DNA of 64,000 nucleotides from an uncultured delta proteobacterium (GTDB taxonomy: Bacteria > Desulfobacterota > DSM-4660 > Desulfatiglandales > HGW-15), in NCBI GenBank assembly GCA_963707125.1, contig CAVPOU010000013.1, forward strand, positions 64,007-128,006. Reading direction: 5' to 3'. A program made the position numbers and the translations under genes. The notes under the pieces are model-generated. The model saw only the letters and a list, made by a program, of their open reading frames with translations, had not been told where the DNA came from and ran no database searches. Below, piece by piece: positions 20,315-28,820 of the stretch; position 1 is the first letter of the stretch, and each line of letters opens with the position of its first letter.

Positions 20315-20458
20315 ATGATGACAAGGGCAAAAGGCCGTGCGTCCTTGCTACCGATGCTCGGTCTCTTTTTCACTCTTATCACGGGTTGCGGAACCTTTGA
20401 GAACGGTCAGGGGGGCCAGGATGCCCTCTACCCGGTTTCCTGTTCTGAGAAAACATAG
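20315..20458 (+). pseudogene. 5' fragment of a PAP2 lipoprotein paralogue (compare 31363-32181)
   Basis: MMTRAKGRASLLPMLGLFFTLITGCGTFENGQGGQDALYPV parallels MLRKAKNPVPLLLILGFLTILITGCGTLENGRGWGQDAIYPV. Homology ends at about 20437, followed by a stop. Confidence 0.6.
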
Positions 20459-20476
20459 TAATATTGTATACAGAAT

Positions 20477-21610
20477 ATGGTAATAGCGAATAACATAAAA
20501 TCCATCACGGCATGGAAGAGTTTCAGGCAGCGCCCGCTTATTATTGCAGGCCCTTGCAGTGCCGAAACGGAAGAGCAGATCATGAATACAGCCAGGCAAT
20601 TGGCTGAAACAGTCAAAGTGGACATATTCAGGGCAGGCATCTGGAAACCCCGCACCAGGCCCACTGACTTCCAAGGCGTTGGCGTCAACGGGTTGAAATG
20701 GCTGAAGCAGGTGAAACAGGAATTCAATCTGCCTGTTGCTACTGAAGTAGCTACTGAAAAGCATGTTTATGAAGCATTGAAATATGGCATTGATGTGCTG
20801 TGGATAGGCGCGCGTACTTCTGCCAACCCGTTTGCCGTACAGGAGATAGCCGATGCATTGCATGGCGTTGATGTCACTGTGCTGATCAAGAATCCGATCA
20901 ATCCCGACCTGGAATTGTGGATTGGCGCCATCGAACGTGTGCATAAGGCAGGCATTAATACAATAGGCGTAATACACCGCGGATTCTCCAGCTATGAGAA
21001 AACACAGTACCGTAATCTGCCCAAGTGGCAGATGCCCATCGAACTCATGAGGCGCATACCCAATCTGCCTATAATCTGCGATCCCAGCCATATGGCAGGA
21101 GATACCTTATACCTCCGTGAGATCTCGCAGAAAGCCATTGACCTGAACTTCGACGGACTGATGATCGAATCACATATTGACCCGGCCCATGCATGGAGTG
21201 ATGCGCAGCAGCAGATCATGCCTAATGAACTGCTGGAACTTCTTAGCCGGCTGGTCATGCGCGTACCCGTATCAAACGACAGTAAATTCCTCGATCTGCT
21301 GGATGAGCTGAGAACACAGATCGATCTCTATGACGACCAGCTTCTCGACTTGATGGAACAGCGCATGAAGGTGGCTGAAACCATCGGGAAATATAAAAGG
21401 GAGAATAACATCACCATCCTTCAGACAAGCCGTTGGGACCAGATCATACGGAAGGCTGTTGAGAAAGGCGCCAAAAAGGGGCTTGGCCCTGAATTTATTG
21501 ATAAGCTGTTCAAAGCGATCCACCAGGAATCAATCAATCACCAGATGGAAGTGATGAATAAATCAAACGAGAATAACGCGGCAGCACCGAAGAAGAATGA
21601 AAAAAATTGA
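20477..21610 (+). CDS. aroG: bifunctional DAHP synthase (class I-beta) / chorismate mutase (AroQ, C-terminal)
   Basis: The DAHP synthase part shows IAGPCSAETEEQ, FRAGIWKPRTRPTDFQGVG and ICDPSH. The C-terminal domain is CM-II-like (LRTQIDLYDDQLLDLMEQRMKVAETIGKYK). Confidence 0.85.
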   Translation: MVIANNIKSITAWKSFRQRPLIIAGPCSAETEEQIMNTARQLAETVKVDIFRAGIWKPRTRPTDFQGVGVNGLKWLKQVKQEFNLPVATEVATEKHVYEALKYGIDVLWIGARTSANPFAVQEIADALHGVDVTVLIKNPINPDLELWIGAIERVHKAGINTIGVIHRGFSSYEKTQYRNLPKWQMPIELMRRIPNLPIICDPSHMAGDTLYLREISQKAIDLNFDGLMIESHIDPAHAWSDAQQQIMPNELLELLSRLVMRVPVSNDSKFLDLLDELRTQIDLYDDQLLDLMEQRMKVAETIGKYKRENNITILQTSRWDQIIRKAVEKGAKKGLGPEFIDKLFKAIHQESINHQMEVMNKSNENNAAAPKKNEKN

Positions 21611-22643
21611 AATACACGGATCAGGCAGAACATCGGTCATTTTTGTAGGCGAACGCATAACAAAATTATCCAGTTACCTGCCCCATGGCAAGGTGATTAT
21701 CATCACGGATAAAAATGTGCATCGCTTGTATCATAAGGAATTGGCCGGATATCCCGTCATCGCAATCAGTTTGGGAGAAAAGAATAAAACCTTACAGACC
21801 GTTGAATATATCTATAAAAAGCTAGTCGAGTTGGATGCCGACCGTTCTACATTCATCGTGGGTTTCGGGGGCGGCCTTGTTTGTGATATCACAGGTTTTG
21901 CAGCATCAACATATATGCGCGGACTGCGGTTTGCTTTTGTTCCCACGACCTTGCTTGCGCAGGTAGATGCCAGCGTAGGTGGCAAGAACGGCGTTAATTT
22001 CAACGGGTTTAAAAACATGATCGGTGTGTTCAATCAGCCTGAATTCGTCATATGCGACATGAACATGCTGAAGACACTGCCGAAAAAGGAGATCCTGTGC
22101 GGTTTTGCTGAAATAGTAAAACACGCGTTGATAGCCGATGCGAACATGTTTAATTTCCTAGAGAATAACTTAAGGAAAGCGGTTGCCCTCAACAGCAGAA
22201 TAATTGAAGAACTGGTCTACATGTCTGCTGTTATTAAATCAGAGGTTGTTAACCAGGATGAGCGCGAGAAAGGTTTGCGGAGGATATTGAATTTCGGACA
22301 TACTCTTGGCCATGCCATTGAGAAATGTTCCAACAGATACTCGCACGGAGAAGCTGTAAGCATCGGCATGGTAGCCATATCCGCTTTGTCGGTGAGAAAA
22401 GGATGGCTAAAACCCGAAGAATACACCAGGATTGAAACGCTTATCCGTTCGATCGGCCTGCCGGTGCATGTTCGCATTCCAGCCAGCAGCATTGAAGAAG
22501 CCATGCGAAAAGACAAGAAGAGAGAAGGTAAGAGTATCCACGTCGTATGCCTCAAGGGCATTGGCAATACAACTGTTGCGAAAATAGACGTGGGCAAATT
22601 GCCCGCCTTGTTAACCGGAAATGATCTTTTTTATAAACATTAA
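21597..22643 (+). CDS. aroB: 3-dehydroquinate synthase
   Basis: GGGLVCDITGFAASTYMRGLRFAFVPTTLLAQVDASVGGKNGVNF; LNFGHTLGHAIE. Confidence 0.9.
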   Translation: MKKIEIHGSGRTSVIFVGERITKLSSYLPHGKVIIITDKNVHRLYHKELAGYPVIAISLGEKNKTLQTVEYIYKKLVELDADRSTFIVGFGGGLVCDITGFAASTYMRGLRFAFVPTTLLAQVDASVGGKNGVNFNGFKNMIGVFNQPEFVICDMNMLKTLPKKEILCGFAEIVKHALIADANMFNFLENNLRKAVALNSRIIEELVYMSAVIKSEVVNQDEREKGLRRILNFGHTLGHAIEKCSNRYSHGEAVSIGMVAISALSVRKGWLKPEEYTRIETLIRSIGLPVHVRIPASSIEEAMRKDKKREGKSIHVVCLKGIGNTTVAKIDVGKLPALLTGNDLFYKH

Positions 22644-22655
22644 CCGGTTATCCAT

Positions 22656-27248: not shown

Positions 27249-27272
27249 CATATAAAATCCTGCTTATATACT
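27245..27272 (+). promoter_or_regulatory. sigma70-like promoter candidate for cmoA
   Basis: TTGACA (27245-27250), a 16 nt spacer, then TATACT (27267-27272), about 50 nt upstream of the cmoA ATG. Confidence 0.4.
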
Positions 27273-27324
27273 GGCTTGAAAAAGGAATTTCTTATCTATA
27301 AATTAGCTTCAAAGGAGAGGTTTC

Positions 27325-28056
27325 ATGTCGTCAAAAAGTGATGCCCTGTTCCGAAGGAAAAAGCGTCAAGTGAAGGATTTCGATTTCGGCAAGGACACGG
27401 CCAAGGTTTTTGACAATATGCTCGACCGCTCCGTCCCGTTCTATACAGAGACCCAGCGAATGATTGGGGAGATGGCGGCCGATTTTGCTGTCTCCGGCAC
27501 CAACCTCTACGATCTGGGATGTTCTACCTGCAATACATTCATTCAGATCGATTCCGTGATAGCCAAGGGTGTGAATTTCATCGGTACGGATTCCTCGGAG
27601 GCGATGCTTGCCAAGGCGAAAGAAAAACTAGCGAGCTATCCAATCAGCCACCCTTGTGAGCTCATCTGTTCAGATCTGAATAAGAGCGTGAGCATTGAAA
27701 ACGCCTCCGTGGTCATTATGAACCTAGTCCTTCAATTTGTCAGACCGCTTCGTCGCCCGCGCGTGGTCGAGGAAGTCGCTTCCGGCATCAATAAGGATGG
27801 ATGTCTCCTCCTGGTTGAGAAGGTGCTCAGTCCGGACTCGACGATCAACAGATTGTTCATCAAATACTACTACGAAATGAAAAAGAGGAACGGCTACTCG
27901 GAGATGGAGATTGCACAAAAAAGGGAAGCCCTCGAAAACGTGTTGATTCCGTACCATTACTTCGAGAACCGGGATCTTCTTGTGGAATGCGGGTTTAGGC
28001 ATTGCGAGATGTTCTTCAGGTGGTATAACTTCTGCGGGATGATAGCCATAAAATGA
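27325..28056 (+). CDS. cmoA: carboxy-S-adenosyl-L-methionine (Cx-SAM) synthase
   Basis: Resembles E. coli CmoA along its whole length as I recall it (F..M..RSVP.Y, LYDLGCS, IENASVVIMNLVLQF, NGYSEMEIAQKREALENVL, NFCGMIAIK). AAAGGAGAGG RBS. Confidence 0.85.
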   Translation: MSSKSDALFRRKKRQVKDFDFGKDTAKVFDNMLDRSVPFYTETQRMIGEMAADFAVSGTNLYDLGCSTCNTFIQIDSVIAKGVNFIGTDSSEAMLAKAKEKLASYPISHPCELICSDLNKSVSIENASVVIMNLVLQFVRPLRRPRVVEEVASGINKDGCLLLVEKVLSPDSTINRLFIKYYYEMKKRNGYSEMEIAQKREALENVLIPYHYFENRDLLVECGFRHCEMFFRWYNFCGMIAIK

Positions 28057-28820
28057 TTGCCGCTGAAACGAACGCAAAAGATCGCTCTTTCGTAAATAGA
28101 ACACTTTGTGTCATGGGAGCCTTCTTCTTTCGCTTCCGAAGTAAAGTGTTTCCCGTTACTTACCTGCTAGTGGCGCTTTTTGTTCGGCCTGCATTTTTTG
28201 CGGGGAATCCTAAATGGGATCCCTTTGCGACCGGTATCGGTCTGCTGGTGGCTATGCTCGGTGAAACCATCAGATGTCTCACGATCGGTCTCGTTTACAC
28301 TATTGTCCGGGGGGGGCGAGACCACCGGGTTTACGCAAAAGACCTCGTGACGGAGGGCATCTATGCGCATACGCGCAATCCGATGTATGTAGGCAATCTC
28401 TTGTTCGCCTTGGGGTTCTGCCTGATGTACGGTTCGCCCTGGACGTACCTCGCTATCTTCCCTTTCTTTCTTCTGGTCTACTTGAGTATCGTCTTTGAAG
28501 AAGAGCGTTTCCTGAGCGAGAAATTTGGAGAAAAGTATGACGAGTACGTTCGCGATACGAACCGCTTCGTGCCTCGGCTACAGGGTCTGGCACAGACAAT
28601 GAGACAGCATCCCTTCGACTGGAAAAGGGTGATCGCCAAGGAGTATGGGACCCTGTTCCTTTTTTTCTGCGGTGCTTACGTTCTTCTGATAGCCAAATAC
28701 CGCTACTTAATCGGCCCGGTCGGCATACTCGGCCGTCCCGAGCTCTTGGTTCTATTTTCAATTCCTTTTTTCATTTTATACGGCGTTGCTCGCTTCCTTA
28801 AGAAAACAGATCGCATATAG
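28053..28820 (+). CDS. ICMT/PEMT-fold polytopic membrane methyltransferase-family protein
   Basis: Its start ATG overlaps the cmoA stop (ATGA). Motifs LVTEGIYAHTRNPMYVGNLLFALG and EEERFLSEKFGEKYDEYV are typical of isoprenylcysteine/phospholipid methyltransferase families. Confidence 0.75.
   Translation: MIAAETNAKDRSFVNRTLCVMGAFFFRFRSKVFPVTYLLVALFVRPAFFAGNPKWDPFATGIGLLVAMLGETIRCLTIGLVYTIVRGGRDHRVYAKDLVTEGIYAHTRNPMYVGNLLFALGFCLMYGSPWTYLAIFPFFLLVYLSIVFEEERFLSEKFGEKYDEYVRDTNRFVPRLQGLAQTMRQHPFDWKRVIAKEYGTLFLFFCGAYVLLIAKYRYLIGPVGILGRPELLVLFSIPFFILYGVARFLKKTDRI

Follow-up and report, generated by a model that had tools for sequence, protein, structure and literature searches.

A near-obligate pair of a CmoA homologue and a membrane methyltransferase-fold protein, linked to prephenate-forming genes, as a candidate carboxy-SAM module

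A 64-kb stretch of genome from an uncultured delta proteobacterium (contig CAVPOU010000013.1), referred to here as the window and cited by positions within it, carries a gene for a CmoA-family carboxy-S-adenosylmethionine (Cx-SAM) synthase that overlaps, through an ATGA stop/start at 28053-28056, a gene for a polytopic membrane protein of the isoprenylcysteine carboxylmethyltransferase/phosphatidylethanolamine methyltransferase (ICMT/PEMT) fold. We found that the same two genes adjoin each other in 79 of 80 loci retrieved through the membrane protein alone, and the sequence comparisons indicate that they are very probably functionally coupled. The explanation that we consider likely is that the pair is a two-gene Cx-SAM module with an attached prephenate supply, which in the window would take the form of a complete shikimate-to-prephenate gene block upstream. 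The two genes of the pair are as follows.

27325 to 28056, + strand: CmoA-family carboxy-SAM synthase (TIGR00740, 233.8 bits, cutoff 193.3)
28053 to 28820, + strand: ICMT/PEMT-fold polytopic membrane protein, LmtA-like, 255 aa, a candidate Cx-SAM-dependent carboxymethyltransferase (Pfam, NCBIfam, AlphaFold2 model)

The recurrence of the pair was determined in 80 loci retrieved from a one-genome-per-species collection with the membrane-protein profile alone, cmoA playing no part in their selection. By tblastn a CmoA homologue directly adjoins the membrane gene in 79 of these loci, mostly upstream on the same strand at a distance of 0-80 nt and in a few cases downstream. The sole exception (L078; loci are cited by number where they have to be told apart) lies on a contig that stops 44 nt past the membrane gene; in the related L072, cmoA lies downstream. 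The same adjacency was seen in L003, L005, L088, L090 and L104-L108. About a dozen phylum- or class-level lineages are represented among the 80 loci, including Desulfobacterota, Nitrospirota (Candidatus Manganitrophus), Verrucomicrobiota, Kiritimatiellia, Lentisphaerae, Omnitrophota, Binatia, Planctomycetota, Bacteroidota, Bdellovibrionales and Alpha-, Beta- and Gammaproteobacteria. The nearest relatives of the window pair are found in Syntrophales metagenome-assembled genomes (MAGs) at 84–88% identity, but the pair also occurs in the cultured Dissulfurirhabdus thermomarina and, on large replicons, in Gemmatirosa and in strains of Ensifer adhaerens, Sinorhizobium and Rhizobium. On these replicons PGAP names one gene 'cmoA' and the other 'isoprenylcysteine carboxylmethyltransferase family protein'. 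The membrane family amounts to 336 representatives in an exhaustive profile search (50%-identity clusters, E<1e-30). The linkage between cmoA and an ICMT-like gene suspected in an earlier note on this DNA is thus recurrent, and no CmoB homologue was detected by tblastn with E. coli CmoB (E≤1e-3) in the window or in the stretches of ~20 kb covered at 85 loci. Clustering of ~1000 neighbouring open reading frames (ORFs), from which antisense ORF calls in high-GC loci (clusters 4 and 5) were left out, together with a Pfam census of 146 direct neighbours revealed no universal third gene in the module. On a conjugative plasmid of Rhizobium sp. T1470 (L104) the pair is found amid group II intron reverse transcriptases and IS630 and IS21 transposases, and the two-gene cassette appears to be mobile.

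The window CmoA gives gap-free, full-length alignments with the CmoA structures 1IM8 (E=2e-47) and 4GEK (E=4e-45), and it contains the equivalent of Arg199, the only side chain of E. coli CmoA that touches the Cx-SAM carboxylate (PMC4482062). This arginine is kept in 77 of the 80 pair-linked CmoA homologues and lies one position later in the other three, and the acidic and glycine SAM-binding motifs are invariant among them. Seven of ten sampled pair-linked relatives passed the TIGR00740 cutoff (218–258 bits). The CmoAs of L024, L037 and L083 are divergent and score below it (128–160 bits); that these might be unrelated methyltransferases was ruled out, as CmoA is still their best full-length family match and each has an arginine one position past the Arg199 column. 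The pair-linked proteins are only 30–40% identical to E. coli CmoA and have conserved positions of their own, consistent with a distinct CmoA subfamily. By family membership and the conserved active-site residue, they would be expected to convert S-adenosylmethionine (SAM) and prephenate into Cx-SAM and phenylpyruvate.

The membrane protein scores above the Pfam cutoffs for both PF04191 (PEMT; 56.9 bits, cutoff 25) and PF04140 (ICMT; 28 bits, cutoff 24), and its sequence profile matches the structures 4A2N (E=3.6e-10) and 5V7P. An AlphaFold2 model (mean pLDDT 86.7, pTM 0.83) retrieved archaeal Ma-ICMT (4A2N) as the top Foldseek match with a probability of 1.00, the superposition being modest (template modelling score, TM, 0.38/0.48); sterol reductases from this superfamily ranked next. 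The ICMT/PEMT fold assigned in the earlier note was recovered by family, profile and fold searches alike. The best curated match is LmtA (TIGR04571), which covers residues 21–252 on profile positions 10–243 of 252; with 92 bits where the cutoff is 325, the protein is by its sequence not an LmtA equivalog. Two motifs around the cofactor hairpin are invariant in the family, namely Y-I-x-R-G-G-[KR] (R86-G-G) and A-H-x-R-N-P-M-Y, the latter standing where generic ICMT proteins have RHPxY. Comparison of the sequences identified invariant basic residues, notably R86 in the R-G-G hairpin motif, without a counterpart in generic ICMT paralogues, and this would fit an altered cofactor pocket in the membrane family. 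In the known Cx-SAM users CmoB and CmoX (a phage enzyme) basic residues, Lys91 and Arg315 in the former and a key arginine in the latter, contact the carboxylate and select Cx-SAM over SAM.

Some members of the family are longer or have a companion. P0121 (507 aa) and P0199 (604 aa) contain tandem double ICMT-like domains, the second domain of P0121 having the generic RHPLY motif, and in L090 a second, generic ICMT/DUF1295-like gene (11127–11888, - strand) lies beside the pair. It is conceivable that another reaction follows, such as methyl-esterification of the newly added carboxylate with SAM, by analogy with CmoM on 5-oxyacetyluridine (cmo5U). Two further members have an extra C-terminal segment past a signal-peptide-like or transmembrane stretch, an OmpA-like peptidoglycan-binding domain in P0241 and DUF2141 in P0261, which could be true fusions reaching the periplasm or merged gene calls.

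Genes for prephenate formation are associated with the module in several lineages. The most direct association is a fusion of the PEMT-like protein to a C-terminal chorismate mutase domain (CM_2, 56–66 bits, cutoff 27), found in five 50%-identity representatives; a follow-up search increased this to ~27 clusters at 90% identity from independent assemblies. In L106, L107 and L108, cmoA is the next gene after the fusion. A search of six-frame translations with a hidden Markov model of the chorismate mutase domain identified this domain fused to, or encoded directly after, the membrane gene in 9 of the 80 loci. In the census of direct neighbours (Pfam, n=146 genes) histidine kinases (12) and DAHP (3-deoxy-D-arabino-heptulosonate 7-phosphate) synthase (5) were the only families to occur more than twice, and aroB adjoins the pair in three classes of the PVC (Planctomycetota-Verrucomicrobiota-Chlamydiota) group. 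The sister Syntrophaceae loci L005, L008 and L090 have DAHP synthase beside the pair and an orthologous two-component system before it. CmoA uses one prephenate per Cx-SAM, and attachment of a chorismate mutase is understandable for a membrane enzyme that needs the CmoA product; for one that uses plain SAM the fusion is hard to explain. The C-terminal position of the mutase also implies that this end of the protein is in the cytoplasm and that the active site faces it, in line with a SAM-derived cofactor. An unusual architecture was observed in a Bdellovibrionales MAG, in which a 561-aa fusion of prephenate dehydratase and DAHP synthase (L037, 172–1854) is encoded immediately ahead of a divergent cmoA and its membrane-gene partner.

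The mechanism that we propose begins with the CmoA reaction described above. The membrane enzyme, its cofactor site facing the cytoplasm, would then take Cx-SAM instead of SAM and carboxymethylate (+58 Da) a nucleophilic group of a molecule that is embedded in the membrane or bound for the envelope, a step to which the near-obligate gene pairing and the chorismate mutase fusions point. Prephenate would be spent 1:1 per Cx-SAM, and different lineages do have genes for its formation attached to the module, presumably as a supply: a fused chorismate mutase, a neighbouring DAHP synthase or, in the window and its close relatives, a whole DAHP-to-prephenate block. In the lineage of the window an adjacent OmpR-type two-component system of the metal subfamily probably controls expression. 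The proposal of the earlier note that a membrane or envelope component is carboxymethylated via Cx-SAM is in this way supported by comparative genomics (the pairing, the retention of Arg199 and the fusions), the acceptor being the more conjectural part.

A challenge to this mechanism is that the membrane protein might be an ordinary LmtA- or PEMT-like SAM methyltransferase, with cmoA serving the tRNA cmo5U pathway together with a distant cmoB and the adjacency reflecting co-regulation or chance. Adjacency in 79 of 80 loci over about a dozen lineages cannot be due to chance, however, and a chorismate mutase fused to the membrane enzyme itself would be senseless if plain SAM were the cofactor. 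Canonical cmoA is moreover co-conserved with an adjacent cmoB (PMC4482062), a gene not found near any of the loci under study, and the low identity of the pair-linked CmoAs to the E. coli enzyme and their own conserved positions set them apart from it. Against these points stand the usual ICMT/PEMT SAM-binding region in the membrane protein, the Gene Ontology term tRNA modification that PGAP gives to such cmoA genes, and the restriction of the CmoB search to stretches of ~20 kb. We consider a plain-SAM methyltransferase highly improbable, and Cx-SAM-dependent carboxymethyl transfer by the membrane enzyme to be the probable activity on the sequence evidence.

In the window, the pair is preceded by a block of six + strand ORFs that cover all seven shikimate steps and an AroQ chorismate mutase according to Pfam and NCBIfam.

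20477 to 21610, + strand: DAHP synthase (type I-beta) with a C-terminal AroQ chorismate mutase (PF00793, 139.5 bits, residues 18–255; PF01817, CM_2, 87.6 bits, residues 278–356)
21597 to 22643, + strand: 3-dehydroquinate synthase AroB (TIGR01357, 357 bits, cutoff 305)
22656 to 23306, + strand: type I 3-dehydroquinate dehydratase AroD (TIGR01093, 140.7 bits, cutoff 139.3)
23485 to 24789, + strand: AroE::AroK fusion of shikimate dehydrogenase and shikimate kinase (Shikimate_dh_N, SDH_C and Shikimate_DH, residues 6–253; SKI, residues 273–428, 141.6 bits)
24758 to 26005, + strand: 5-enolpyruvylshikimate-3-phosphate (EPSP) synthase AroA (TIGR01356, 378 bits, cutoff 287)
26042 to 27022, + strand: chorismate synthase AroC (NF003793, 346 bits, cutoff 321)

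Consecutive ORFs overlap by 14 nt between the DAHP synthase fusion and aroB and by 32 nt between aroEK and aroA. AroB, AroD, AroA and AroC passed equivalog cutoffs, and DAHP synthase, AroE, AroK and the chorismate mutase were assigned from Pfam domains above the gathering score; on the NF009239 bifunctional model the DAHP synthase fusion scored 185 bits, below the cutoff. These coordinates and domain assignments, including the two fusions, agree with those of the earlier note, as does the lack of pheA and tyrA in the block: with PheA and TyrA of E. coli as tblastn queries (E≤1), no homologue of prephenate dehydratase or dehydrogenase was found in the 64-kb window.

The spacer between aroC and cmoA measures 302 nt, close to the ~300 nt that had been reported along with the shared strand and the ATGA coupling, and contains two features in addition to a GGAG Shine-Dalgarno-like motif ahead of the cmoA ATG.

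27051 to 27248, + strand: response-regulator receiver remnant, a 65-codon ORF (weak PF00072 match, 17.4 bits, E=0.005)
27245 to 27272, + strand: sigma-70-like promoter match TTGACA-16-TATACT (11 of 12 consensus positions, the best within 19700–32400; a consensus match only)

With the spacer filled by the remnant and by the best sigma-70-like match, the cmoA/membrane-gene pair may be a transcription unit of its own, separate from the aro block. A receiver-domain remnant likewise follows aroC in L091, a close relative, where an LPG_synthase_TM (flippase-like) membrane gene (1698–2960, - strand), again a gene of envelope lipids, comes after the block and the remnant in place of cmoA.

A metagenome scan with AroC identified three close relatives of the block, L092, L093 and L096, at ~90% amino-acid identity. 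The block is reproduced in L092. The order in L093, an independent JGI contig, is cmoA, membrane gene, DAHP synthase::chorismate mutase, aroB, aroD, aroEK, aroA and aroC, with the pair upstream of the block, and in L096 aroC is followed by a PAP2 gene whose product is 75% identical to the window PAP2. The occurrence of two gene orders in independent assemblies excludes a chimeric join, a possibility that the earlier note had raised and that was ruled out by the presence of the block in L092 and L093, the latter with the pair on the opposite side; it also argues for selection on the linkage.

Whether the block of the window is an extra copy dedicated to the pair, as had been suggested, is a question on which we hold the two answers roughly in balance. 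The block may instead be the housekeeping aromatic pathway of the organism, next to a genuine module by chance. A C-terminal chorismate mutase on DAHP synthase is a known housekeeping architecture, and distant DAHP synthase::chorismate mutase-aroB-aroD-aroC clusters (L094, 6270–11901; L097), which lack aroEK and aroA between aroD and aroC, are housekeeping operons flanked by pheA and tyrA; the window block accordingly derives from an operon of this type and looks like a remodelled form of it. Several Syntrophales (L006, L007, L009, L011 and L088) have the pair and no block, and the promoter-like site of cmoA lies behind a pseudogene remnant. Chance proximity is harder to reconcile with the linkage of block and pair in the two gene orders of the window and L093, with the lack of pheA and tyrA in the block and across the window, with the DAHP synthase beside the pair in the sister Syntrophaceae, and with the recurrence of chorismate mutase and DAHP synthase linkage in unrelated phyla. 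Base composition also sets the segment apart, G+C being 0.45–0.51 over 21–30 kb (aro block, pair and the next spacer) and ~0.52–0.57 in most of the remaining window; the lower G+C of this whole segment is compatible with horizontal acquisition. A housekeeping block could well be the correct description, though we lean slightly away from it. Of the idea of a dedicated supply, the recurrent attachment of prephenate genes to the pair stands, and its application to this block is weakened by the housekeeping character of the distant homologues.

The genes around the pair bear on the likely acceptor and on regulation. Those of the window are listed below.

17650 to 18381, + strand: OmpR-family response regulator, nearest the CopR/CusR/CzcR heavy-metal subfamily (Pfam Response_reg and Trans_reg_C; TIGR01387, 252 bits, cutoff 279)
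18631 to 19776, + strand: HAMP-HisKA-HATPase sensor kinase, partner of the preceding regulator (TIGR01386, 240 bits, cutoff 293)
29260 to 29415, + strand: histidine-kinase ATPase C-terminus remnant (PF02518, 21.8 bits, E=2.7e-4, profile positions 77–109 of 111)
29762 to 31336, + strand: PMT_2 (GT-C) glycosyltransferase, ArnT-like, not an ArnT orthologue (PF13231, 159.7 bits; ArnT model 43 bits, cutoff 567)
31363 to 32181, + strand: PAP2-family phosphatase (PF01569, 59.2 bits)
32431 to 33027, + strand: putative small outer-membrane beta-barrel protein, 198 aa (signal-peptide-like N-terminus, H-R-S-G motif, C-terminal ...IGIRYTF with final Phe)

Elsewhere, envelope-modifying genes (arn, EptA, heptosyltransferase, LpxR, MlaA, PAP2 and PMT_2) were found within ~7 kb of the pair in ~18 loci. 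ArnT, ArnC-like GT2, formyltransferase and epimerase genes lie near it in L020, L028, L040, L043, L049 and L083, EptA in L050, L071, L079 and L085, heptosyltransferases in L006, L007 and L049, and LpxR together with MlaA in L088; L011 has a homologue of the window PMT_2 gene (317 bits) on the downstream side of the pair. In ~20 loci the pair is flanked by OmpR-type two-component systems, with orthologues of the window regulator (67% identity) just upstream of it in L005, L008, L009 and L090, and all 80 retrieved hosts belong to diderm lineages. These neighbours, the diderm hosts, the two-component systems and the closeness to LmtA lead us to name lipid A or lipopolysaccharide (LPS) tentatively as the most likely acceptor, for example through a lipid A phosphate group by analogy with LmtA; a different membrane lipid or a small hydrophobic nucleophile is possible as well.

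A small-molecule acceptor is the substance of a further alternative, in which Cx-SAM-dependent carboxymethylation of a hydrophobic or volatile nucleophile (a thiol, sulfide or metalloid) would serve detoxification or metal handling and not the envelope. The ICMT family includes small-molecule methyltransferases such as MddA, which methylates methanethiol; the two-component system of the window is nearest the CopRS/CusRS/CzcRS heavy-metal subfamily; and metal-transport genes occur near the pair in several unrelated loci, L106 having genes for a Cu P-type ATPase, an RND pump and YHS/TRASH proteins, L087 for a CDF transporter and L090 for an Nramp protein with a cation ATPase. Often the pair stands alone as a cassette, away from any envelope genes. 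The full-length match to LmtA as best curated family, the recurrence of arn, eptA, lpxR, PAP2 and heptosyltransferase neighbours and the restriction of the retrieved genomes to diderms speak for the envelope instead, and we regard the small-molecule alternative as unlikely. The modification may be linked to metal stress. One host of the pair, Candidatus Manganitrophus, is a manganese oxidiser.

In its most specific form, the envelope reading would have a membrane Cx-SAM transferase carboxymethylate lipid A (at a phosphate or a dephosphorylated hydroxyl) or another membrane lipid, under metal- or envelope-stress two-component control and with its own prephenate supply. This would be a widespread modification of the Gram-negative envelope, new to science, that provides a carboxylate handle. 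We put this forward as a possibility, and on balance a doubtful one, as several points weigh against it. Most loci are without envelope-modifying neighbours, the Rhizobiaceae pair being set amid unrelated or mobile genes, and metal-handling genes are frequent neighbours. The physiological logic of carboxymethylating a lipid A phosphate is unclear, because negative charge would not be lowered as it is by PmrAB-type modifications. Other points count against the module explanation in general: the preference of the membrane enzyme for Cx-SAM is drawn from genomics, a cmoB located beyond the ~20-kb stretches could in principle let CmoA serve both pathways, and both the separate promoter-like site and remnant ahead of the pair and the housekeeping operons among the distant block homologues loosen the tie between pair and block.

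As a system, the pair works like the known combinations of CmoA with a dedicated transferase and differs in the fold of the transferase, the likely acceptor class and its own prephenate supply. CmoB had been taken to be the only known partner in Cx-SAM chemistry, a view that is out of date: Cx-SAM is a rare cofactor, and its four documented users are CmoB (tRNA), TglF (the peptide thiol of a ribosomally synthesised and post-translationally modified peptide), MccB's C-terminal domain (peptidyl-cytidylate) and phage CmoX (DNA cytosine C5), all of them soluble. The CmoA/CmoB system for tRNA cmo5U (E. coli; structures 4GEK, 1IM8 and 4QNV) resembles the present one in a CmoA above the TIGR00740 cutoff that aligns gap-free over its full length, in Arg199, in the dependence on prephenate and in the overlap of the gene with a downstream transferase gene, E. 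coli cmoA overlapping cmoB. The partner described here, however, is an integral-membrane protein of the ICMT/PEMT fold and not the Rossmann-fold CmoB, and tRNA is no obvious acceptor for it. TglE/TglF (3-thiaglutamate), MccS with the MccB C-terminal domain (microcin C-like peptides) and phage CmoA/CmoX (5-carboxymethylcytosine) share the arrangement of a CmoA homologue with an adjacent dedicated transferase from a methyltransferase family, but TglF, MccB and CmoX have soluble class I folds that act on peptide, nucleotide and DNA, whereas our candidate is polytopic. To our knowledge, none of the known Cx-SAM systems has a chorismate mutase, a DAHP synthase or a shikimate block of its own.

Among membrane methyltransferases, LmtA (Leptospira lipid A 1-phosphate O-methyltransferase) is alike in being the closest curated family, with a full-length match, a Ste14/ICMT-type membrane fold and, in some loci, an envelope context; LmtA uses plain SAM, and the family described here falls far below the LmtA cutoff, is paired with CmoA and differs in its RNPMY and RGG motifs. 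ICMT/Ste14 and PEMT enzymes (4A2N, 5V7P) share the above-cutoff Pfam matches, a conserved C-terminal EE..L..FG..Y..Y and the top fold match, but the window protein superposes only modestly, has extra helices and RNPMY for RHPxY, lies in an envelope and prephenate gene context, and has no prenylated-protein substrates. Lipid A loci under PmrAB/PhoPQ control (arnBCADTEF, eptA, lpxE/F and pagL) are comparable in their OmpR-type systems (~20 loci here) and in ArnT, ArnC-like, EptA, PAP2 or LpxR genes within 7 kb (~18 loci here). They differ in that a carboxymethyl group would not cut negative charge, that the candidate enzyme would act at the cytoplasmic face with a SAM derivative, and that the window two-component system is nearer Cu/Ag/Zn sensors. 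A literature search for cmoA or Cx-SAM in connection with ICMT, PEMT, Ste14, membranes or lipids, or for carboxymethyl lipid A, found nothing relevant among papers available without subscription; a seeming match, PMC12608789, proved false, the word there being cMOAT.

If borne out, the membrane protein would be the first integral-membrane user of Cx-SAM and would extend the chemistry of this cofactor to an acceptor class and an enzyme fold new to it. A new modification of lipid A, LPS or a membrane lipid could bear on metal tolerance, antimicrobial-peptide resistance and innate-immune recognition, and a natural membrane carboxymethyltransferase would be of use to bioengineers. It would also explain the cmoA genes that are labelled 'tRNA modification' by homology in many genomes. 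Because strains of Ensifer adhaerens and Rhizobium that have the pair are in culture and amenable to genetics, a direct test of the hypothesis is feasible.

Of the remaining features of the window, the envelope genes downstream of the pair had been described as a lipid A remodelling locus with an ArnT-like glycosyltransferase, a PAP2 phosphatase, an outer-membrane barrel and an LpxL remnant. The phosphatase and the glycosyltransferase hold up at family level, the latter being ArnT-like without being ArnT; no orthology lies behind the name given to the locus. Pfam and NCBIfam contained nothing that matched an LpxL remnant, which was not confirmed, and gave no match for the ORF at 32431–33027, which is probably the barrel in question and has a C-terminal end typical of small outer-membrane beta-barrels; a divergent lipid A deacylase of the PagL kind is one possibility for it. 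Pseudogene-like fragments lie on both sides of the pair, the receiver at 27051–27248 and the histidine-kinase ATPase at 29260–29415, which suggests that a two-component system has decayed here and that the DNA around the pair was locally rearranged. Further upstream, and apparently unrelated to the pair, are two large tandem PAS-GAF histidine kinases of 784 and 949 aa (8444–13778, - strand) and an AbiEii/DUF6036-type nucleotidyltransferase (15001–15552).

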